A DNA stretch of 22,886 bases, taken from sequence record NZ_CP072383.1, one strand, 5' to 3'. The notes beneath the pieces are model-generated. The model searched no databases. It was not told the origin of the DNA and saw only the letters and a program-made list of their open reading frames with translations. The position numbers were made by a program, and so were the translations under genes. Of this stretch, positions 3,687-22,886 are shown piece by piece. Origin of the DNA: a plasmid. How positions within the stretch are numbered: the first letter of the stretch is position 1; every line of letters starts with the position of its first letter.

Positions 3687-4664
3687 TTAACGTTCAAAAT
3701 CTCTTGTTTGGGCTTTTTCCAGCTCTTTATTTACGCCTTTGCCCATATTAGCGCGTATTTCTTTATATTTTTCAGCGACACGGATAGCGCTTTCTATTCC
3801 AGCAATTCGCATAGCCACAAATTGCGCAGACTTTTCTTTATCCGAGCCGTTAAAGCTATGTCCGAAATTACCTTCAAGACCAGGCTTGTATTGTTCATGC
3901 AACGCATTTTCAAACGCTGTCTTGTATTCCGGTGATTGTAATTTTTTGCCCAACTCTAACGGGGTAATTTTCTGGTTATCCCAACGGATTAAATCTTCTT
4001 TGGCATTACCGTATTTTTCAGGTGAATTAACGGTCTTTTCGGCAGGATTGATGACCTGTTCTTTTGAACGGTCACGCAATGATTCAATACTGAATTTGGC
4101 AATGTGAACTTCGGCTTGTTGTAAACTGAATTGCGGGTTGCTGTAAGCCTGTAGACGCAAATTATCTTCAAAAGCGGTGTGATAAAGGCTATTTTGTGAT
4201 TTACGGCGCATTTCATCGGTAGATATATCGCCTTTGCGATACAAAGCTAAATCTTTCTGTGCAAGTGTAAATTGCTCACGATAGGCGGGGTTTTGACTAC
4301 TATTTTTCACCCAAGAATCTATTTCATTGCGCAGGGTTTGTTTATCTGCAATCGACTGATAAACCGCAGGTGCAACACTTAGCCCTTTATCCTTGCTTAA
4401 AATAGCGGCATCCAATCTTTCAAAATAACGTTTAATAAACTCCATACTATTTTTAGAAATCGTTCTGATTTCTTCAAAAAAGGAAGAGCGCGCTTCGATT
4501 TGTGGCGGTTTTTGATATTTATCTTCGAGCGCTTGCATAAAAGCTTTTTCATACGCCGGATTATCTAGACGTAAGCGAATCGCCTCAAAATCAGCAACAC
4601 GATGATTTATATCAAAATCCACGTCCTTTTTAAGTTCGCTTTCATTTTGCGGTGTGTACATCAT
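3687..4664 (-). CDS. hypothetical hydrophilic protein with three internal approximately 20-aa repeats (NPAYEKAF.., NPAYREQF.., SPEYKTAF..); no recognisable domain
   Basis: 325-aa ORF with no TM segment, K/E-rich. The motif [NS]P[AE]Y..(A/Q)F..AL...Y.KP recurs three times. It is the second gene of the operon, between the DinJ-like gene and ssb. Confidence 0.6.
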
Positions 4665-4759
4665 TAAGCCCTCTTACTTATTAACTCCAAAAACGGATCG
4701 GTTTTTATAACCGCGTTTATAATCATCTTTAACAGATAATTTCTAGAGGATTATTTGGA

Positions 4760-4963
4760 TTACAGCTTCCTTTCTTTCGCTATGCTTATCAATACAGCAG
4801 AATTTGTTAATTCATTTGGTAATTTTTTTTCATTTGCTATATAGCTTAAATATAGCCTAATGGCGTCAGAAACGGTTAATCCCATTTTTCGTAGTTCTTT
4901 AGCGGCTTGATTTTTCAGCGCCCTACTTGTGCGAACTCTAATTGAAATATCTGAATCTGTCAT
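4760..4963 (-). CDS. RelB/DinJ-family RHH protein (antitoxin-like); no cognate YafQ/RelE toxin gene nearby
   Basis: IRVRTSRALKNQAAKELRKMGLTVSDAIRLYLSYIANEKKLPNEL aligns closely with the E. coli DinJ N-terminal region (ARIDEDLKNQAADVLAGMGLTISDLVRITLTKVAREKALPFDL). It is the first gene downstream of the promoter at 4972..5000. Confidence 0.75.
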   Translation of the reverse strand: MTDSDISIRVRTSRALKNQAAKELRKMGLTVSDAIRLYLSYIANEKKLPNELTNSAVLISIAKERKL

Positions 4964-4971
4964 GTGTCCTC

Positions 4972-5000
4972 ATTGTATCCTTCTTGTGGGTATGGGTCAA
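4972..5000 (-). promoter_or_regulatory. sigma70-like promoter for the dinJ-like/ssb/virB operon
   Basis: Minus strand reads TTGACC-17 nt-TACAAT followed by GAGGACAC-ATG. The -35 is revcomp of 4995..5000 and the -10 is revcomp of 4972..4977. Confidence 0.5.
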
Positions 5001-5344
5001 TAATAAAATACCATAAAAATGAGTTTTTTTAACTTAAAAAATAGATCTTTCTTGATCTTTTTTGTGCATAAAGAGTAGAATAGGGAGCATTAACTTGCTT
5101 TCTGCTCAAGAAATGAGATTTGAGGCGAGAGGAAACTGAAAAAGAAAAAGCACCTCGGCAAAGGTGCTTATTCAAGAAGTGTGTTTTAACGAACTCTACC
5201 AAAGCAACGTTTGAAACACGATTAATAAAATCAGTTAGTATTATACTGGGCTGAATGTTATTTGCAATAGTTTTAAACTAAATTTTTACATTGTGAGTAC
5301 CTTAAAATCGTGATTCAAATGTTGCTTAACAAGAAATAGCAACA

Positions 5345-6352
5345 ATGAAGATTAAACGTAAAAAAATCAACAGAACATTCGGCTTTAAGTCATCAAAACG
5401 AGCTGTCAACTATGAGAAGGCCGCGAAGAAAAAACATCGCAATCTTACTCCTTTCTTTACTCAAAATCTCCAGAGCCGGGAATTTGCTTATACAACGTGG
5501 TTTTTCCTGCAACGTTGTGAAACCCATAATTTCAATAAGAATCCTTACTTGAACGCTTTACGATTAAGTAAATATCAGCGTGAGACTATCCGCCGGGAAC
5601 GTCGGGAAGTCCTTTCTGTTTTGTTGCCAACGCTTATTACGTACTGTGACTTTTCTCCGGCAAGCGATTATCTCTTTGAAGTCCGCTCAAACGTCGAACA
5701 TATCGCTAATATGTGTAATCAGGCTTATGTATCGTGGGATAAGAACGGTAAAAATCGAGTGCGTTACGATACGGTACTCAATGCTATTCAAATGTTGGAA
5801 GACGCTGAATTGATTACTGTATTACGTGAGTATGACCGATTGGGACAAAAGCATAAACCAATGCGGATTTTCTTAAACGTTGAATTCTTTTTAATGTTCA
5901 ACATTACAGAGAAAGAATTAAGAAAAATCCTGGTCGATTTCCATAAATATCAATTTGTGAACAATCGTGTAAATCAAACATTCGAGCGTTATAAAAAACA
6001 TCTAGACAAACTGGAAAATAAAGGTGTGGCTGGTATTAAACAGCACTATTCATTAAAAAACTTACTCATCAAACGCCGAAAGGATTTGTTAGGCGAGCAC
6101 GTCATTAAATTTGTTTCTCAACGTAAGCCGGTAAATTATCTTGATTTAGACATTGAAAGCGACGTTTTTAAACCTTGTTTTCGTTCGTTTGCCGACTGTA
6201 ACACAACGGAAGAAGTACAAAAACTCCGCAAGCGTCTATATGACAAGGAGCGAATAAGACAACGAGCGCGAGAAAAAGCGGCAAACGATATTTTGTACCG
6301 GAAAGCCCTCAAAGAAAGCTACATGACCGATTTACAACATTACGCCTCTTAA
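5345..6352 (+). CDS. repA: plasmid replication initiator, IncFII RepA1-like family
   Basis: Central region RRE..LSVLLPTL...D.....RYDTVLNAIQMLEDAELITVLREYDRLG....PMRIFLNVEFF parallels R100 RepA1 (RRRAIDALLQGL...SITRATRALTFLSELGLITYQTEYDPLIG.YIPTDITFTSALF) as I recall it, not checked by alignment. It is the only large plus-strand gene in this region, followed by an AT-rich non-coding stretch. Confidence 0.65.
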   Translation: MKIKRKKINRTFGFKSSKRAVNYEKAAKKKHRNLTPFFTQNLQSREFAYTTWFFLQRCETHNFNKNPYLNALRLSKYQRETIRRERREVLSVLLPTLITYCDFSPASDYLFEVRSNVEHIANMCNQAYVSWDKNGKNRVRYDTVLNAIQMLEDAELITVLREYDRLGQKHKPMRIFLNVEFFLMFNITEKELRKILVDFHKYQFVNNRVNQTFERYKKHLDKLENKGVAGIKQHYSLKNLLIKRRKDLLGEHVIKFVSQRKPVNYLDLDIESDVFKPCFRSFADCNTTEEVQKLRKRLYDKERIRQRAREKAANDILYRKALKESYMTDLQHYAS

Positions 6353-6702
6353 TTTAATCATCTTTTTTCAGTTGATGGCTTGGTTTTACTAAGTCACGAC
6401 TCAACACATCTACCAATATGAAATTGCTTATAATTTAGGCTATTTCATCTACCTTATTTTTATTTCAGAGTAAAGATTGCATTGATACTAACCAAATTTT
6501 GCTAAATTCATGCGGCATTGTGAGTAAGTTGTGTGTTTGTTGTTAGGTAAATATTATTAAATTCGCCCTTAATTTCGGCACTAAACGTTATTCCATAATT
6601 TATTTTTAAATATAAAAATAAGGAACAGAAAATCTCCGATTTTCAAATAATAGGACCCTTGCTACCGCAAGGGCAAAATACACTCCGATTCAATATTTAT
6701 TG
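6353..6702. other. AT-rich non-coding region downstream of rep; candidate vegetative origin
   Basis: 350 bp with no ORF and very AT-rich (for example atttatttttaaatataaaaataagg). Position relative to a RepA1-family gene matches where IncFII-type ori lies. No convincing DnaA box was seen. Confidence 0.35.
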
Positions 6703-6852
6703 GGTAACAGTATGCAACCAGTTTAAGAAATTTGCTCCTGTGCTTATCAAGGTCAAGCCCTACGGGTTGGCTACGCCAAACCTTGACAATCACCCGCAAA
6801 TTCTTAATGGTTTAGCATACCGTTACCCCCTCATTTGTGCTAAAGCACGATA
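6703..6852. repeat. IR-L, the left copy of a 150-bp perfect inverted repeat (partner 8791..8940)
   Basis: Reverse complement of 6703..6852 is identical base for base to 8791..8940. The copy contains a TTGACA-N16/17-(T)AATGGT promoter-like motif at 6783..6811 and an internal 13-bp imperfect IR (6703..6715 versus 6815..6827, 12/13). Confidence 0.9.
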
Positions 6853-6854
6853 TA

Positions 6855-6892
6855 AACAAAAAGTGCGGTAAATTTCTACCGCACTTTTATTC
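6855..6892. terminator. bidirectional rho-independent terminator built from an inverted USS pair; terminates ardC
   Basis: acaaaaAAGTGCGGTAaatttcTACCGCACTTttattc has a 10-bp stem, a 6-nt loop, and A-run and T-run flanks. AAGTGCGGT is the Haemophilus-type uptake signal sequence core. Confidence 0.7.
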
Positions 6893-6929
6893 TAATATGT
6901 TTAATAATATTTATGTTTTTACATAAATA

Positions 6930-8057
6930 TTATCTTTCCTTCTCTTGTTCTTTGATAGGTTCTTTTTGAAAGGCGAGCTGCGCCTTCAATTTATGATATG
7001 CTTCCACTGCATTTGACTTCATGGATTCATCAAAAGATTTATAGCCCTGATGTTGGGCAAACGAGATAATATGATTGTTTTGTTGAACAGCTTCTTTTGA
7101 TGGAGATTTATCCAAGGTTAATTCTTTGTCATGTAGTGTAATGTAATTTGATACTTTTACAGCCGTTTTTATAGCGTCTTTAAAATCATCATTTGTCAGT
7201 TTACCCGCCATAATCCACCCGCGCAAATATGCCAACGAATTTTTTTCATCGGAAAAATCTCGTTTAGGATTTTGCACGGCAATTTGATATTTCCTGGAAA
7301 GTAACATTGATGAAATTTCAGCTATAAGTTCTTCTTTAGCGTACTCTTTTGAATTCATATCAAAAGAAATTTTCCTATTTAGTCTGGACGGGTGAGAAGT
7401 TGCATGAGACGCTTCATGTAGAAGTGTGCCGTAGTACTCTTTTTTGCCTTTGAACTGTGCCTTATCTGGAATCACGATGAGATCTAAATCCGGTTGATAG
7501 TAAGCCTTATTACTAAACTTTTCCTCAACATTAATATTCATGTTTCTAACAAGTTGTTCTATCCGTTCTATGTTATATAGATCGCGCTTTTTTCGGTCTT
7601 CTATTGTGATTTCCGGCGGGGTATAAGGAGGGAGCCCGGTTGTTTGTTGAGCATTAAAAACAATGTAATATTTTGCTATATAGCCATCAATTATTTCTAC
7701 TTCTCTTTGATTTTTCCCTTCTTGGTCAACAATCGGTTTGCCGTTTTGGTCTTTTTTAATTCGTTCAATTTTATTCGTATAAAATTGTATCAATCGACCC
7801 TTTTCACCTTTCTTAACTTGTCCGCCGAGTGCTTTAATTTGCTTATAAGTAAACCATCGAGGATCATCATACGGGGAAAAATAAAGATTTAACTCATTAA
7901 TGCCGGAGTATGGTCTGCCTGTATTTCCATTTTGGGGATATATATCAAAACTATTCCAGCGTTTTTCCCATTTTGAATCATTATTAATAATGGCATTACG
8001 TATTGTTTCCGCTAACCGATCTTCATAATCTGCGCGAATATCTTTTTTCTCTGCCAT
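6930..8057 (-). CDS. ardC: ArdC-family antirestriction protein (N-terminal ssDNA-binding domain plus C-terminal zincin metalloprotease)
   Basis: 375 aa. A HExxH motif occurs in LLHEASHATSH, and the N-terminal domain (NGNTGRPYSGINELNL, FTYKQIKALGGQVKKGEKG) is typical of ArdC/TraC-primase-N-like proteins. RBS GAGGAAG is present. Confidence 0.85.
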   Translation of the reverse strand: MAEKKDIRADYEDRLAETIRNAIINNDSKWEKRWNSFDIYPQNGNTGRPYSGINELNLYFSPYDDPRWFTYKQIKALGGQVKKGEKGRLIQFYTNKIERIKKDQNGKPIVDQEGKNQREVEIIDGYIAKYYIVFNAQQTTGLPPYTPPEITIEDRKKRDLYNIERIEQLVRNMNINVEEKFSNKAYYQPDLDLIVIPDKAQFKGKKEYYGTLLHEASHATSHPSRLNRKISFDMNSKEYAKEELIAEISSMLLSRKYQIAVQNPKRDFSDEKNSLAYLRGWIMAGKLTNDDFKDAIKTAVKVSNYITLHDKELTLDKSPSKEAVQQNNHIISFAQHQGYKSFDESMKSNAVEAYHKLKAQLAFQKEPIKEQEKER

Positions 8058-8074
8058 ATCTTCTTCCTCATAAA

Positions 8075-8212
8075 CTAATCGTCTGAATTTATTTCCGGAT
8101 CAACTGCCTCTATATCAATTCCTGATGTATCCAAATCATAGATAACACCATCATCGGCTAAATCCTTGTTGATTTCGTCTAAATCAGATTGGCTAATTGG
8201 TAGCGTTGTCAT
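8075..8212 (-). CDS. small highly acidic protein (45 aa), unknown; candidate DNA-mimic or anti-defence protein
   Basis: Minus-strand ORF MTTLPISQSDLDEINKDLADDGVIYDLDTSGIDIEAVDPEINSDD with a GGAG RBS 7 nt upstream. It is below the 60-aa cutoff of the ORF track. It overlaps the end of the upstream ORF by 20 nt and ends 18 nt before ardC. Confidence 0.4.
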   Translation of the reverse strand: MTTLPISQSDLDEINKDLADDGVIYDLDTSGIDIEAVDPEINSDD

Positions 8213-8477
8213 TTTTTTCTCCTTCATCAATACATAAAAAATGAACTACTTTAAAATCATCATTCTTGAAATTATTAATCAAGAACTCTCTAAAATCAGC
8301 TTTAAAGGTAGGATCACTTTTACATTGTTCTTTAATTATTAGATAGGCTTTATAAGCCTTATCTTTATCATTTTTAATCTTATTTTCCTGTTCCTGTTTG
8401 ATACGCAGCTTTTCTTTTTTCTCCTCTAGTTTTAACTGCTCTTTCAACTTTTCAATCTTAGAATTTGTAATCTTCAT
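8193..8477 (-). CDS. hypothetical K/E-rich coiled-coil protein (94 aa from MKITNSK)
   Basis: ORF 8193..8528; the likely start is ATG at 8477 (MKITNSKIEKLKEQLKLEEKKEKLRIKQEQENK...). No domain recognised. First gene downstream of IR-R. Confidence 0.5.
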   Translation of the reverse strand: MKITNSKIEKLKEQLKLEEKKEKLRIKQEQENKIKNDKDKAYKAYLIIKEQCKSDPTFKADFREFLINNFKNDDFKVVHFLCIDEGEKNDNATN

Positions 8478-8566
8478 GATTATTACCTTTTTGTTAAAAA
8501 TATGTGTACCTATAACTTGTCGCGCCACGCTTTTATCGCCGATGGCGACCGTGTGGAAAAATTGTG

Positions 8567-8711
8567 CAAAACTGCTTGCAGTTTTACACCGAATTTTACC
8601 ACACTTAAAAGCTATTTTTGAAAATTATACACAGTCACTTACGCTCGCTTACGCTCACTATTCGGGATAAGAAATTTTTGGGCTTTTTTAGAGCTCCAAA
8701 AATTTCTTACC
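8567..8711. promoter_or_regulatory. structured non-coding region: palindrome, tandem 10-bp repeat and a 14/16-bp-stem hairpin
   Basis: caaaactgc-tt-gcagttttac at 8567..8586. cttacgctcg/cttacgctca tandem at 8638..8657. Inverted repeat taagaaatttttgg (8668..8681) / ccaaaaatttctta (8696..8709) with a 14-nt loop. Confidence 0.4.
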
Positions 8712-8790
8712 ACTCATCCGTTCTTGTGCATAATTTTCAAAAATTTACCGAACTCCGAATCACTTAAATCTTTATTATCAATTTTATCTG

Positions 8791-8940
8791 TATCGTGCTT
8801 TAGCACAAATGAGGGGGTAACGGTATGCTAAACCATTAAGAATTTGCGGGTGATTGTCAAGGTTTGGCGTAGCCAACCCGTAGGGCTTGACCTTGATAAG
8901 CACAGGAGCAAATTTCTTAAACTGGTTGCATACTGTTACC
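8791..8940. repeat. IR-R, the right copy of the 150-bp perfect inverted repeat; carries a promoter-like motif reading leftward into the 94-aa ORF/ardC module
   Basis: Identical to the reverse complement of 6703..6852. The -35 TTGACA is revcomp of 8855..8860 and the -10-like motif is revcomp of 8832..8838. Confidence 0.9.
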
Positions 8941-9029
8941 TCTGATGGTATCACTATTAGCTTAAATCTTCTACATTTCTTTGCGTAAATCTGAGTTTTG
9001 TGTTAGATTTAAGTCCATGTTCTTTAAAG

Positions 9030-9055
9030 GACTAATGCAGGATAGCGACAAGCGC
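9030..9055 (-). other. candidate oriT nic region (IncP/MOBP-type nic core TATCCTG|C on the minus strand)
   Basis: Revcomp of 9037..9044 (gcaggata) is TATCCTGC, an 8/8 match to the RP4/R751-type nic core YATCCTG|Y. It lies 35 to 50 bp upstream of mobC. It is oriented so the mob genes would be transferred last. A nearby 9-bp inverted pair cttaaatct/agatttaag lies at 8962..9024. Confidence 0.5.
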
Positions 9056-9088
9056 CTTAAAGTGATACACCTTAAAAAATAATGTAGT

Positions 9089-9631
9089 ATGATTTCAGAC
9101 AAAAATTGTAGAGTTATTATAACGTTAAATAACTCTTTAAGAAAAAAATTAAATGAAATTTGTGATAAAACTGGAAATAGTTTAAGTAGTTTAGTTGCTA
9201 AAGTTTTATCAAATTATTTTTCTGATGATGTAATGTTTGTTGAAATGCTTCCGTCTCGTGAACTAGAAAAGAAGCAAATTAGAATAAGTCTTACACTTTC
9301 TGAAATTTCTGCATTGGAAATGCACGCAGAAAATCATGGATTTTCGATTAGTGAGGAAATTGTTTTTAGGATTTTATCTACGCTTTCTAACGAACCTAAA
9401 CTTTTGAATGATGAATTATCTGAAATCATAAAATTAAGAACAGCATTAAATCAAGTTGGGCGAAATGTTAATCAGATTGCTAAAAAATCATCTAAAGATA
9501 TAAACGAAAGGGAGCTATTAATAGCATTAAAAAATACTCAATTTTGGATTGATAAATTGGATAAAAAACTTGATGAATTAATTTCAAAAACGGTGGATAG
9601 ATGGGCGTTCGTATCGAAAAAGAATGGTTAG
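9089..9631 (+). CDS. mobC: MobC-family relaxosome accessory protein with N-terminal RHH-like repeats
   Basis: Contains LNQVGRNVNQIAK, matching the MobC signature L.RIG.NLNQIAR. Sits directly upstream of the relaxase. Confidence 0.75.
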   Translation: MISDKNCRVIITLNNSLRKKLNEICDKTGNSLSSLVAKVLSNYFSDDVMFVEMLPSRELEKKQIRISLTLSEISALEMHAENHGFSISEEIVFRILSTLSNEPKLLNDELSEIIKLRTALNQVGRNVNQIAKKSSKDINERELLIALKNTQFWIDKLDKKLDELISKTVDRWAFVSKKNG

Positions 9632-9759
9632 TAAGAAGAGTTAAAAAGGATTCTTCAGTTTCTTATTCTAGCAATAAGAAATTTAGAGAATCTAGCTATT
9701 CCTATAATGCTTCATCCAAACTGAAAACACAGCGTAATTTTCATAATTCTAATGAGGTT

Positions 9760-10335
9760 ATGGTTAAAATTACAAGCAGCGGAAAGAATCTTAAAGCTAT
9801 CAAGTCACACATGGATTATATTTCAAGAAATGGTGATATTCAGTTAGAGGATGAACAAGGGTTAGTTTATAAAGGTCGTGAGGAAGTGCGCGAGCTTAGA
9901 GATTATTTGCGTGATAATGGTGTTAAAATCAAGAAGAAAAATGAGCTTAAACGCGAGTATCGCCAAACGATGAATATTGTTTTTTCTATGCGTGATAAAA
10001 GCATTCCGGAGGAAAAAATTAAGAAGGCTGTTAAAGCCACTTTGAAAAAATTATATCCTGATAACATGTTCGTATTGGCTTATCATGGTGATACGGATAA
10101 TCCTCATTGTCATGTCATTTTAAAAATTGCCGATAACAATGGAAATCGAGTTAATATCAATCTCCATGATTTACAAGAAATCAGAACGCATTTTGCAAGA
10201 TACCTTAATTCATTAAGTGTTGAGGCTAAGGCACAACACCATTCAAAAAATCCGTTAATAAATTGCCTAGCCGAGCTGTCGAAATTGTCGATTTTGGCAA
10301 AGATTTTTATCAGCATAAGCCTGAAAATAAAATGA
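9760..10335 (+). CDS. mobA: MOBQ/MOBP-superfamily relaxase (MobA-like) N-terminal catalytic domain. The reading frame appears interrupted, see 10263..10769.
   Basis: MVKITSSGKNLKAIKSHMDYISRNG parallels RSF1010 MobA MAIYHLTAKTGSRSGGQSARAKADYIQREG with the catalytic Tyr. The 3-His motif HGDTDNPHCHVIL parallels MobA ..ENPHCHLMI. The ORF track extends to ATG 9601 and overlaps mobC; the real start is more likely 9760 (GAGG upstream, short spacing). Confidence 0.8.
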   Translation: MVKITSSGKNLKAIKSHMDYISRNGDIQLEDEQGLVYKGREEVRELRDYLRDNGVKIKKKNELKREYRQTMNIVFSMRDKSIPEEKIKKAVKATLKKLYPDNMFVLAYHGDTDNPHCHVILKIADNNGNRVNINLHDLQEIRTHFARYLNSLSVEAKAQHHSKNPLINCLAELSKLSILAKIFISISLKIK

Positions 10336-10769
10336 GTTATTTTGTGACGTATAAGGGGCAAAATGGCAAAAATGTGACGATATGGAGTAAAACATTAGAG
10401 GAAAGTTTATTATCCTCAGATGTTAAACGTGGCGATGTTATATCGCTTAAAATCAGCCACATTGAAAAAGTTTCTTTGCCTCGATTCATAAATGATAAAT
10501 CGGGAAATATGAGTAATGAAATTATCTTGAATCGTAAGCATTGGAAAGCCGATATTGTTGAACGGTATAAAGGATTATCGTACAAGGCTGATCCATTAAT
10601 TGAATATCAACGTGCAAGACGATTATCAATGCTGAATGCTTTAAATCAAAAAGAACGTATTGCTAAGAGTAATGAAAAAGCCCTTTCTCCGAAAGAGCGT
10701 TATGAGCAAAATAAACGTAAGCTATTAAGTGAACGTAAATTACCGCCTGCACAAGAACGTTTTAGGTAG
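10263..10769 (+). CDS. second ORF overlapping the relaxase 3' end by 73 nt in the +2 frame; likely the relaxase C-terminal region separated by a frameshift, or alternatively a separate MobB-like gene
   Basis: Frame is open from 10230. An A6 run at 10245..10250 lies inside the overlap. The first ATG is at 10332 with a poor RBS; the TTG start at 10263 is the ORF-track call only. Confidence 0.45.
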   Translation: MPSRAVEIVDFGKDFYQHKPENKMSYFVTYKGQNGKNVTIWSKTLEESLLSSDVKRGDVISLKISHIEKVSLPRFINDKSGNMSNEIILNRKHWKADIVERYKGLSYKADPLIEYQRARRLSMLNALNQKERIAKSNEKALSPKERYEQNKRKLLSERKLPPAQERFR

Positions 10770-10772
10770 ATT

Positions 10773-11351
10773 TTATAATGCTGTAGGGCGTAAATCCTCG
10801 AGAATATCACTAGGAAAATAGGCATATATACTTGACTGTGATATGCCTAATTTTTCTGCTATTTTTTTTACCGTCCAACCGGCCTTTAATAGTTCTCTTA
10901 TTATCTCTATATTATCTTCTGTCATTTTAGGCGGGCGTCCTATTCTTACACCCTGTTCCCTTGCAAATTTTATGCCTGCTTTTGTGCGTTCGATGATACT
11001 GTTACGTTCCATTTCTGCAAATATGGACGCAAAATAAAATAACCATTCTCCAAATATTGTTCTTGTGTCTATGTTTTCGATAAGGCTGACAACACTCACC
11101 TTTTTCTCCTTTAGTGTTTCAAGAACCCGGCTTGATTGAGAAATGCTACGTCCTAACCTATCTAATTTCCATACTATGAGCGTATCTCCTTCTCTGAGAA
11201 AAGTTAATGCCTTTTTGAATTCCCTACGGTCATCAGAATTTCCACTCTCCTTTTCAGAAAAAATTTTTTCACATCCGGCATTTCTCAGTGCTTGGATCTG
11301 CATTTCATAGTTTTGTTCTTTTGTCGATACACGGGCATAACCAACTAACAT
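10773..11351 (-). CDS. serine recombinase (resolvase/invertase family)
   Basis: N-terminal YARVST.EQ with the catalytic Ser, a DRLGR motif and a C-terminal HTH (WTVKKIAEKLGISQSSIY). 192 aa. RBS AGAGGTG. Confidence 0.9.
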   Translation of the reverse strand: MLVGYARVSTKEQNYEMQIQALRNAGCEKIFSEKESGNSDDRREFKKALTFLREGDTLIVWKLDRLGRSISQSSRVLETLKEKKVSVVSLIENIDTRTIFGEWLFYFASIFAEMERNSIIERTKAGIKFAREQGVRIGRPPKMTEDNIEIIRELLKAGWTVKKIAEKLGISQSSIYAYFPSDILEDLRPTAL

Positions 11352-11395
11352 AATTCACCTCTTTTTATTCGGATAATAGCTGATTTTACAATGAC

Positions 11396-11490
11396 TTCCA
11401 AAAAGTATTTCTGGAGAACTTTTTAGAACGGAAGGAGGGCGTTTATGAGCTCAATAAAAAAATTCCAAAAACCGATCCGTTTTTGGAATT
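11396..11490. promoter_or_regulatory. res-like recombination or operator region upstream of the recombinase gene: two palindromic subsites
   Basis: Subsite 11461..11490 is aattccaaaaac-cgatcc-gtttttggaatt (perfect 12-6-12). Subsite 11396..11428 is ttccaaaaag-13 nt-ctttttagaa. Confidence 0.5.
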
Positions 11491-12448: not shown

Positions 12449-12494
12449 CTTTCCATTTTTATGCTTATAAATATTTATGCTTTTGTATAAATAT

Positions 12495-12734
12495 TTATAA
12501 CATGCCTTTTTCTTTTAAATCCTTACTAAGTAAGTCATTAAAATACTCTTTCAACTTAATATCATTAAGTAACGCGTATTTCTTCGCTGCTTTGTAAACA
12601 TCCACCGGAATCATGATGGTAGTTCGTTGTTCGGCAATAGTTACTTCCTCTTTGAGCTGTGGCATAGCCGTTTTTTCAATGCTACCCATAGAAAGCCCGG
12701 ATTTGCTTAGTGTGCCTTTTGTTAATTTACTCAT
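12495..12734 (-). CDS. parG: ParG-like RHH centromere-binding/partition protein
   Basis: 79 aa with C-terminal RHH (TIMIPVDVYKAAKKYALLNDIKLKEYFNDLL). Overlaps the parA stop by 8 nt. Confidence 0.6.
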   Translation of the reverse strand: MSKLTKGTLSKSGLSMGSIEKTAMPQLKEEVTIAEQRTTIMIPVDVYKAAKKYALLNDIKLKEYFNDLLSKDLKEKGML

Positions 12735-13599: not shown

Positions 13600-13905
13600 T
13601 TACCACGAAAATAAGTATATAAGACATAAAAGCATAAATCAATATTTATTTTTTTATATTTTAACATAAAAACATACTTATACTTAAACATGAATATGTT
13701 TTTATTTGAATCATTGTCATTGTTATCAGTTTTATCTATGATGATGGCATTGTTTTAGCCAACACTGAAAAAGTGTTGGACTTAAAATAGACGACGTGGC
13801 TTATATTTCCGCGTTCCTGGCGAAAGGGTAGGGATTTGTAATATCGCTAAGTGTTCTATATCACTAAAGCAATAAAAGCATAAATAAATATTTATGCTTT
13901 TATTT
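13600..13905. promoter_or_regulatory. AT-rich par upstream region with repeated palindromic ATAAAT(N)ATTTAT motifs; candidate centromere/operator, with a palindrome that may also terminate the T4SS operon
   Basis: aaaagcataaatcaatatttat at 13630..13651. 28-bp palindrome aaaagcataaataaatatttatgctttt at 13873..13900. The same core tataaatatttat occurs twice at a 20-bp period at 12466..12499, between parG and fic. Confidence 0.4.
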
Positions 13906-13922
13906 TAATACGTATTTGTTTT

Positions 13923-22359: not shown

Positions 22360-22886
22360 TTATACACAACGTTGTTTATAAATCGGAATCCAGTCATTAG
22401 CGGCTTCGCCGACTTCTTCGATAATTTGATGTAGGATTTCTGCGTTATCCTTACTGGTTGACAGAATTTTTAAGTTTTCACGCCCTAAACCGCTTAAATC
22501 TAACTTAGCTAAGGCTGTTTCTAGCCCTTTACGCACTAAGAAAGTACGGGAATCCGGTTGTAATTCACGGATAATTTCAAATTGTTTTTCACTGATTCCG
22601 AAACCATCCACATAATCCACTTTGCGTGCAATCGGGTTAGGTAAACAAATGGTTGTTTCACATTGCTCAACTACCGCGCGAGAAATTGGGCTTTTCAACA
22701 CTTCATCCATACTTTGGGTCATCGGTATGACAATTCCATCTTCTTTCCGAATAACTTTTAATTTGTTATAGGCAAAGTCGGAAAACGCTTCATCTTTTAA
22801 CCATTTCCAGAATTCATCCATAAAAATGATCAAACGACGACCATCTAATAATTTTCCGATACGGTGTAATAAGTAGAAAGAAAGCG
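22360..22886 (-). CDS. virB4: VirB4 C-terminal portion (continuation of the gene that starts at 2245 and wraps around the window ends)
   Basis: Open in frame from the window end: ...LSFYLLHRIGKLLDGRRLIIFMDEFWKWL (Walker B-like DE) ...TTICLPNPIA...LSTSKDNAEIL. The ORF-track TTG start at 22833 is an artefact of window truncation. Confidence 0.85.
   Translation of the reverse strand, partial: LSFYLLHRIGKLLDGRRLIIFMDEFWKWLKDEAFSDFAYNKLKVIRKEDGIVIPMTQSMDEVLKSPISRAVVEQCETTICLPNPIARKVDYVDGFGISEKQFEIIRELQPDSRTFLVRKGLETALAKLDLSGLGRENLKILSTSKDNAEILHQIIEEVGEAANDWIPIYKQRCV

Follow-up and report, generated by a model that had tools for sequence, protein, structure and literature searches.

Inverted hairpins around the ardC cassette of a pVT745-type plasmid as probable single-strand promoter or priming elements of a cross-phylum family

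The plasmid in sequence record NZ_CP072383.1 was analysed as one stretch of 22,886 nucleotides (nt), referred to here as the window. It carries two 150-nt inverted repeats, IR-L and IR-R, that bracket a cassette containing ardC between the replication gene rep and the predicted origin of transfer (oriT). The two arms are probably copies of an RNA-polymerase-type promoter/priming hairpin that works in single-stranded DNA (ssDNA), and would represent a new sequence class of the kind known from Frpo and from single-strand origins (sso). Each arm would fold, once single-stranded, into a hairpin of ~125 nt whose stem reconstitutes a promoter of the sigma-70 type. The RNA polymerase of the host would recognise the folded arm and leave it by way of the hairpin base, and the RNA may be used as mRNA for downstream genes, as primer for complementary-strand synthesis, or as both; the Frpo/ssi elements of F-like plasmids (ssi, single-strand initiation signals) and the sso of rolling-circle plasmids act in this manner. 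An earlier inspection of the letters of the window (the sequence-only reading) had described the repeats and offered possible origins for them, but it overlooked the hairpin in each arm, the structured family to which this hairpin belongs in several phyla, and the promoter that the hairpin reconstitutes.

The repeat pair and the hairpin in each arm

As the sequence-only reading had stated, the 150 nt of 6703-6852 are perfectly complementary, in inverted order, to those of 8791-8940, and the inverted match stretches to 159 nt at 98% identity (6703-6861/8782-8940), stopping abruptly at the outer ends and fading over ~9 nt at the inner ends. The pair is the sole long repeat within the 22.9-kb window. 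The window itself is a pVT745-type conjugative plasmid of Pasteurellaceae (MOBP1 relaxase, VirB-type type IV secretion system, T4SS) and is 98.8% identical to P. multocida pRCADGH-2. The virB4 gene seems to span the window ends (1-2245 and 22360-22886), and since the two pieces sum to its 2,772 nt, the window looks like a complete circular plasmid of 22,886 bp. Every member of the pVT745-type family examined carries the inverted pair, which was found in 12 assemblies (eight deposited plasmids, the window included, and four metagenomic contigs). The arms show no difference in eight of these assemblies, a single one in three, and nine in pVT745.

Inverted repeats around a gene cassette of ~1.9 kb have the geometry expected of the terminal repeats of a transposon or insertion sequence. 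However, neither a transposase nor an integrase is found between the arms, and the arm flanks (ATTTATTG / CTCTGATG) bear out the earlier remark that a target-site duplication is absent. The unit is single or in direct repeat elsewhere, and all members of the pVT745-type family have the pair at one and the same location, with different cargo. The transposon-end reading is thus effectively refuted, and the recurrence of the pair in 12 independent assemblies means that it is not an assembly artefact; the chance that either explanation is correct is negligible.

The first 125 nt of each arm are an imperfect palindrome (GGTAAC...GTTACC) that forms a hairpin of ~125 nt. We denote the plus-strand reading of IR-L as X and the opposite strand, which is the favoured single-strand form, as rcX. 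Folded as ssDNA, IR-L reaches -32 kcal/mol on the plus strand (X, z -7.2) and -37.8 kcal/mol on the minus strand (rcX, z -8.0), and the arm hairpins are in general more stable than chance, with z about -7 to -9.5. The complete 150-nt unit consists of the hairpin, the motif CCCCCTC and a 12-nt mini-hairpin, and a comparable small hairpin occupies the position of the latter in other lineages. The apex is a three-way junction built of P1 (AAGGT/ACCTT), the linker CAAG, P2 (CCC-TAC-GGG) and P3 (TTGGC-TAC-GCCAA); on the minus strand of IR-L, both apical loops read C-GTA-G. A pattern for the hairpin base matched both arms and 0 of 100 shuffled sequences, and a model of the apex found no further copies in the window. 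The elements of the two arms are as follows:

6703-6852, minus: IR-L, full copy of the unit; rcX on the minus strand (the predicted transferred strand); ~350 nt 3' of rep, the canonical position in the family
8791-8940, plus: IR-R, second full copy; rcX on the plus (retained/complementary) strand; faces the 94-aa, 45-aa and ardC genes (aa, amino acids); 97 nt from the predicted nick
6703-6827, minus: long imperfect hairpin of IR-L (GGTAAC...GTTACC), from folding
8816-8940, plus: long imperfect hairpin of IR-R, mirror of 6703-6827
6749-6786, minus: apex three-way junction of IR-L
8857-8894, plus: apex three-way junction of IR-R
6837-6848, mirror 8795-8806: mini-hairpin GTGCTAAAGCAC after the conserved CCCCCTC, within the 150-nt unit

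A structured family with a favoured strand and a built-in promoter

When the unit was compared with 72,556 plasmids by blastn, only Pasteurellaceae plasmids and three short apex matches were returned, and no Gram-positive plasmid was among them. Unrelated plasmids of Pasteurellaceae contain the hairpin part alone (unit positions 1-131), either once or in direct repeat, and the ~40-nt apex was also recovered by blastn from plasmids of Sebaldella (Fusobacteriota) and Pseudanabaena (Cyanobacteria). A structure-aware pattern of the apex located 52 further loci (10 in species-representative genomes and 42 in metagenomes) in Pasteurellaceae, Leptotrichiaceae, Burkholderiales, Aquificota and Cyanobacteria. 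Viral contigs gave no match in two scans, including one with the apex pattern, and the hairpin-base pattern, though effective on the window and the loci, gave none in species-representative genomes. An Rfam scan of 6300-9200 at E ≤ 1 returned only a chance match to the L20 leader; a literature search for the motif sequences led only to unrelated primer matches, and one for sso and Pasteurellaceae to nothing specific. The hairpin seems to belong to a widespread and apparently undescribed family of plasmid elements.

Covariation supports the structure. The loci comprise 23 distinct apex cores, and in the apex alignment (24 sequences) 94.4% of the cells are paired, compared with 78.5% in shuffles and 21-44% in slid controls, while 73 cells changed on both sides against 23 expected from shuffles. 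P3 is 100% paired, with at least five pair types and compensatory changes at its three free pairs. Compensatory changes also occur in 20 of the 37 consensus pairs of 13 full-length hairpins from unrelated stem lineages.

The two strands of the hairpin are not equivalent. Of the 56 distinct sequences, 54 fold more stably as rcX than as X, and so do 19 of the 21 lineages; rcX gains this stability through G.T pairs where the X strand has A.C. In the IR-R copies of pVT745 and of the metagenomic locus L062, which have diverged, the promoter-like boxes are kept and the changes yield G.T pairs on rcX. Both apical loops of rcX read C-GNA-G, a motif that forms DNA mini-hairpins of high stability and occurs in the single-strand origins of phages. 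The search pattern put no constraint on the P2 loop, which on rcX is GNA in 18 of the 23 cores.

The 3' arm of rcX holds the putative promoter. In at least five unrelated stem lineages this arm reads TTGAC(A/G) or TTGATA, then 19 nt containing a purine bulge (GAGC), then TAAACT, TAAAAT, TAGAAT, CATAAT or TAAATT, and no -10 box is found at the equivalent position of the X arm in the lineages compared. The -10 hexamer, of the form TAnAnT, is largely unpaired in the full alignment, with A2, A4 and T6 invariant, as would be expected of a pre-melted -10 that is read from the non-template strand. The -35 box adjoins the three-way junction on the side towards the loop. From this geometry, transcription would exit through the hairpin base along the 5' arm, and the RNA would therefore have the sense of the genes that follow X. 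The boxes of the window are:

6720-6750, minus: non-template arm boxes of IR-L, TTGATA 6750-6745 and TAAACT 6725-6720
8893-8923, plus: non-template arm boxes of IR-R, TTGATA 8893-8898, 19-nt spacer, TAAACT 8918-8923

The model places the RNA start at ~6815-6819 for IR-L, running rightwards, and at ~8824-8828 for IR-R, running leftwards into the cassette. A different promoter-like motif had been described earlier in each copy, and it is present in the orientation given: in IR-L, TTGACA (6783-6788), a 16-nt spacer and TAATGG (6805-6810) point at the terminator at 6859-6888, which is bidirectional and contains an uptake signal sequence. We reject this duplex TTGACA-16-TAATGG as a functional promoter, as its -10 lacks the final T and other lineages have no -10 box on the arm that carries it. 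The promoter that matters would instead be TTGATA-19-TAAACT on the opposite arm, as reconstituted by the hairpin. Duplicated promoter/operator modules, one of the three origins proposed for the repeats, come nearest to the present interpretation.

Could the hairpin act as RNA instead, as an antisense or counter-transcript, a leader, or an insulator/terminator, with its copies merely bracketing the operon? Covariation alone does not tell RNA from DNA, a G.T/G.U asymmetry is the classic sign of a transcribed strand, and small Rep plasmids often use antisense RNAs. Such a role would nevertheless leave unexplained the -35/-10 boxes at fixed spacing on one arm and the largely unpaired -10 with its invariant A and T. 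The favoured strand is antisense to all downstream genes, no conserved promoter is placed to transcribe it, and the rcX loops obey the C-GNA-G rule of DNA mini-hairpins. Add to this the lack of an Rfam match and the occurrence of the element beside four unrelated Rep types as well as in leading regions far from rep, and an RNA function appears very unlikely.

The genomic contexts of the family include both conjugative leading regions and minimal replicons. In an F-type plasmid of Glaesserella (L004), a covariance model placed three copies at 21.1, 25.7 and 28.0 kb, each of which precedes a plus-strand operon pointing towards oriT and has rcX on the minus strand (3/3). Reading of the region revealed an F-like nick motif, TTTGCGTGGGGTGT|GT, on the minus strand upstream of the tra genes; we take it to match the nick region of F, and on this basis the minus strand would be the one transferred. 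A search of L004 with the F nick decamer, allowing one mismatch, gave no match. Two of the copies (25673-25852 and 27980-28159) lie 4.6 and 6.9 kb from rep within the leading region and are identical 180-nt direct repeats, 2.3 kb apart, which indicates that perfect identity between copies is usual for the element. These repeated copies represent a diverged hairpin lineage with TTGACA-18-CAAACT and a P3 loop that reads TCT, not GNA.

The gene arrays after the hairpin comprise genes for plasmid establishment and encode ParA, DUF1456, DUF2958, RadC, a DUF4942 methyltransferase, zeta toxin/TopoIII/SSB and MazE, and in a Fusobacteriota-like circle of ~4.2 kb (L034) ArdC follows directly. In several Pasteurellaceae contexts, one of the first two genes that follow the hairpin encodes a member of a protein family of ~190-200 aa to which Pfam gave no match (L064, 486-1064 after the apex; L016, L058). 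At the other end of the size range, the hairpin is found in RepL/MobV plasmids and in replicons with Rep only, namely a Rep_trans circle of ~1.7 kb (L060) and the RepL plasmids p9L (1,338 bp) and pHha1733 (1,733 bp), and it is the only notable non-coding feature of these minimal replicons, a setting characteristic of single-strand origins. rcX is on the Rep sense strand of the Rep_trans circle, the displaced strand in minimal replicons being assigned from the Rep sense strand alone. Hairpins of type A have their apex ~410-450 nt after an IncFII-RepA-like rep in plasmids with three different transfer systems, and the order rep, AT-rich spacer (~380 nt), hairpin is kept across Rep lineages with an identity of 74% and lower. 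A Rep-specific double-strand origin was considered and rejected, given four unrelated Rep types (IncFII-like RepA, RepL, Rep_trans and Pseudanabaena RepA) and copies far from rep.

The inverted arrangement beside oriT

The segment between rep and the relaxase gene contains the following features (ORF, open reading frame):

5345-6352, plus: rep, IncFII-RepA-like replication initiator
6859-6888: bidirectional intrinsic terminator with uptake signal sequence AAGTGCGGT
6930-8057, minus: ardC, 375 aa, ArdcN and zincin-like metallopeptidase
8075-8212, minus: 45-aa ORF, no family match in Pfam or PHROGs
8193-8477, minus: 94-aa ORF, first gene after IR-R, no family match in Pfam or PHROGs
8478-8790, minus: highly structured leader, from IR-R to the 94-aa ORF
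8941-9088, minus: oriT region, predicted nick between 9038 and 9037, 5'-TATCCTG|CATT-3'
9089-9631, plus: NikA-like accessory gene
9601-10769, plus: MobP1 relaxase, two overlapping ORFs

The ardC gene that the sequence-only reading had named between the arms is confirmed by its ArdcN and zincin metallopeptidase domains, and the location of the cassette in the leading region, predicted in that reading, is supported. The sole YATCCTGY of the plasmid (TATCCTGC, minus strand, 9037-9044) lies 97 nt from IR-R in a conserved intergenic region beside the NikA-like/MobP1 operon. Homology with pVT745 runs at 96% up to 9037 and is unalignable from 9038, and pVT745 parts from the other family members at this point too; the break at the predicted nick suggests past relaxase-mediated recombination at oriT. 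The nick geometry of RP4 served as the template for assigning the transferred strand. With this geometry the nick motif would make the minus strand the transferred one, and IR-R, the cassette and IR-L would enter first. On the other side, rep, an AT-rich spacer (6353-6702) and IR-L form a module that is common to plasmids with other transfer systems. The terminator at 6859-6888 ends ardC and would also stop RNA from IR-L. A GC-rich terminator-like hairpin is located at 6655-6674 on the minus strand, ~30 nt outside IR-L, so that IR-L is flanked by terminators on both sides.

The arms of a given plasmid share changes that are specific to this plasmid: the loop A of the window, a C-to-A change in pS23A, and an extra C in pFJ6683 and pRCADGH-2. 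The mean difference between arms is 1.5 within a plasmid and 2.65 between plasmids. The shared changes point to gene conversion between the arms, as suggested earlier from their perfect identity, and on these comparisons arm identity is a case of concerted evolution kept by gene conversion.

What lies between the arms is variable. In pVT745 (L002), a 3' remnant of ardC next to IR-L (6448-6725) corresponds to 6930-7387 of the window, and four to five hypothetical genes take the place of the 45-aa gene and of what else there was of ardC; the remnant indicates that the cargo of pVT745 is a replacement inside a fixed frame. The 94-aa ORF is conserved in the ardC-type and the pVT745-type variants, and a third cargo type, seen in L062, starts with a 124-aa first gene. 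Acquisition of the cassette as a unit, another of the proposed origins, is at odds with one pair that brackets three cargos and with the ardC remnant kept in pVT745.

The last of the proposed origins was inversion of the cassette. A RecA-mediated crossover between the arms would flip it, and in the flipped state IR-L would drive the 94-aa, 45-aa and ardC genes from the transferred strand, giving early expression, whereas in the observed state the operon would be readable only from duplex DNA or from the other strand. Perfect arms of 150 bp are well above the length that RecA recombination needs, the plasmid-specific changes common to both arms show that they recombine, and the flipped state would restore the canonical arrangement of L004, L005 and L034. 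Yet the flipped arrangement was found in 0 of the 12 assemblies (these are consensus assemblies, in which a minority of flipped molecules is possible). Copies on the rep side always have the rep-side inner flank and copies on the oriT side the oriT-side inner flank, the orientation is constant over three cargo types and four host genera, and no dedicated recombinase acts at the arm sites. We regard such a switch as quite unlikely.

Several observations weigh against the interpretation of the arms as single-strand promoter/priming hairpins. If the nick assignment is right, IR-R, which faces the ardC operon, has rcX on the non-transferred strand, so the classic scheme, in which the incoming strand allows genes to be expressed early, does not hold for this cassette. 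IR-L is right for the transferred strand, but downstream of it lie only the terminator and antisense ardC, and no gene. The nick itself is deduced from a 7-nt motif and the homology breakpoint, and pVT745 diverges in the motif. No similarity to known Frpo/ssi elements was found in the plasmid-wide blastn, and the apex model gave no significant match in the leading region of F or in R388. The GC-rich lineages have a weak, TACGCT-like -10 only. Finally, P1 and some of the -35 box were prescribed by the search pattern, and the conservation of these parts is partly by construction.

The physiological setting may also differ from transfer. The copies could be accessory signals of vegetative replication, with the IncFII-like replicon starting its leading strand at IR-L and its lagging strand at IR-R, much as at the G-site of R1 or at ssiA and ssiB of RSF1010. 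Such a role falls within the single-strand promoter/priming explanation, with the same mechanism in another setting. It would be consistent with the order of rep, AT-rich spacer and hairpin that is kept across Rep lineages and three transfer systems, with the hairpin in minimal replicons of 1.3-1.7 kb, and with an IR-L RNA that heads away from rep, as leading-strand synthesis does in R1. On the other hand, other plasmids with the same rep module hold one copy only, which makes IR-R dispensable for replication, and L004 has two more copies at a distance from rep, in its leading region. A role confined to the origin is conceivable, though we consider it unlikely.

In six other multi-copy replicons the copies are all co-oriented, and the inverted arrangement is therefore peculiar to the pVT745-type family. 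By virtue of the opposite orientations, each DNA strand has exactly one rcX hairpin. Under the single-strand promoter/priming explanation, RNA from IR-L would be made in the direction of oriT and could serve as primer for the complement of the 2.3 kb that enter first, and gene conversion would keep the arms identical. We tentatively propose, at low confidence, that the inverted pairing is itself functional, providing one active single-strand promoter/primer on each strand of the first-transferred segment, and that the family is a universal class, recognisable by sequence, which links sso elements with conjugative leading-region promoters across phyla. In the donor, the T-strand (the transferred strand) would be peeled from the nick and the retained strand would expose IR-R 97 nt downstream; IR-R would then fire leftwards, prime the replacement strand and induce the 94-aa/45-aa/ArdC operon in a manner coupled to transfer. 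In the recipient, IR-L on the incoming strand would prime complementary synthesis over the same 2.3 kb. The purpose of the pairing may be priming or expression on two strands (donor retained strand versus recipient T-strand, or lagging versus leading template); it may also be a fixed historical inversion kept by conversion, or a rare RecA switch. Hairpins of this kind can also stall complementary-strand synthesis (bioRxiv 10.64898/2026.01.09.698686), and by analogy stalling could apply to both copies on the incoming strand.

Other features of the window were noted in passing. The leader together with the start of IR-R (8478-8835, minus) folds with -106 kcal/mol (z -6.2), contains a 20-nt inverted repeat (8614-8633/8725-8744) whose arms hold TATAAT-like boxes, and has at 8622-8593 a site that resembles a duplex promoter; either a regulatory RNA or another single-strand element could be encoded in it. 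The MobP1 gene is split into two ORFs (9601-10335 and 10263-10769; 244 and 168 aa), where relatives have a single protein of 388 aa, and this split is a frameshift or a sequencing error. A 325-aa ORF directly upstream of ssb (3687-4664, minus) has no Pfam or PHROG match; some members of the family have it, and pVT745 lacks it. AT-rich repeats (ATAAATATTTATGCTTTT...) at 12467-12498, 13621-13660 and 13867-13915 in the parA region, and at 6903-6934 just downstream of ardC, may be partition or operator sites. A 6.8-kb segment (4686-11490) with RelB, rep, both hairpins, the cassette, oriT, mob and a serine recombinase (10773-11351) is inverted against the T4SS/par backbone relative to L010, L003, pVT745 and S57, and not relative to pRCADGH-2. 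Its breakpoints overlap exactly in a 24-nt inverted repeat (4683-4706/11467-11490) that looks like hix/gix-type crossover sites, and the segment is a candidate invertase switch that would flip the replication/transfer module.

Relation to known single-strand elements

The Frpo/ssi elements of F and ColIb-P9 are class 1 ssDNA promoters (Masai & Arai 1997, as presented in PMC11541004), and promoters of classes 2 and 3 have been described from IncI1/IncF leading regions (Wen et al. 2025, PMC12672017). The present element resembles Frpo/ssi as a long imperfect hairpin with -35/-10 boxes rebuilt in the stem, which in L004 (all three copies) is placed on the predicted transferred strand upstream of leading-region operons that point towards oriT, with several near-identical copies per plasmid and a possible double role as promoter and primer. 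It differs in having no sequence similarity to Frpo/ssi, in its three-way-junction apex, which bears two GNA mini-hairpins and is conserved in sequence from phylum to phylum, and in its occurrence in minimal Rep-only replicons. It is also shorter (~125 nt, compared with ~300 nt for Frpo), and in the window its copies are inverted, with the gene-facing copy off the transferred strand.

The single-strand origins of rolling-circle plasmids (ssoA, ssoU and others) and sso1 of ICEBs1 offer a second comparison (PMC4595007). Here too, the element is a non-coding, orientation-specific hairpin of ~130-200 nt, an exchangeable module beside unrelated Rep genes from which the host RNA polymerase presumably makes the primer of the complementary strand, and in the 1.7-kb Rep_trans circle its active form is on the Rep sense strand. 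The RSB and CS-6 motifs of ssoA were not recognised in the present element, for which no formal comparison with ssoA sequences was made. The ssoA primer runs towards the loop, whereas the boxes described here would direct RNA out through the base into downstream genes, and the present element also occurs in large conjugative plasmids upstream of gene arrays.

Two further systems provide parallels for the arrangement. The oriV of RSF1010 has two oppositely oriented single-strand initiation signals, ssiA and ssiB, one per strand, and in R1 the G-site, downstream of oriR, provides a signal for priming that keeps a constant distance from the IncFII-type rep/ori. The window resembles the former in its one signal per strand and the latter in the fixed distance after rep. 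Both are, however, recognised by the plasmid primase RepB' or by DnaG, and not through a promoter-like structure, and ssiA and ssiB lie close together inside oriV, while the copies of the pVT745-type family are 1.9-4 kb apart around cargo genes next to oriT.

So far, ssDNA promoters have been characterised almost solely in enterobacterial IncF/IncI plasmids, where they were found by homology. The short apex signature, defined by its structure and shared across phyla, could be used to annotate leading regions and to predict the transferred strand in non-model plasmids, among them the pVT745 family, with relatives that bear blaVEB, cfr and further resistance genes; it could also help to find early-expressed anti-defence genes such as ardC. 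Of the seven multi-copy replicons seen, no other has its copies inverted as they are here beside oriT, and the pair is a testable case of strand-symmetric priming or transfer-coupled expression. As the hairpin is present both in Rep-only mini-plasmids and in the leading regions of conjugative plasmids, 'sso' and 'Frpo' may well be one device put to two uses.

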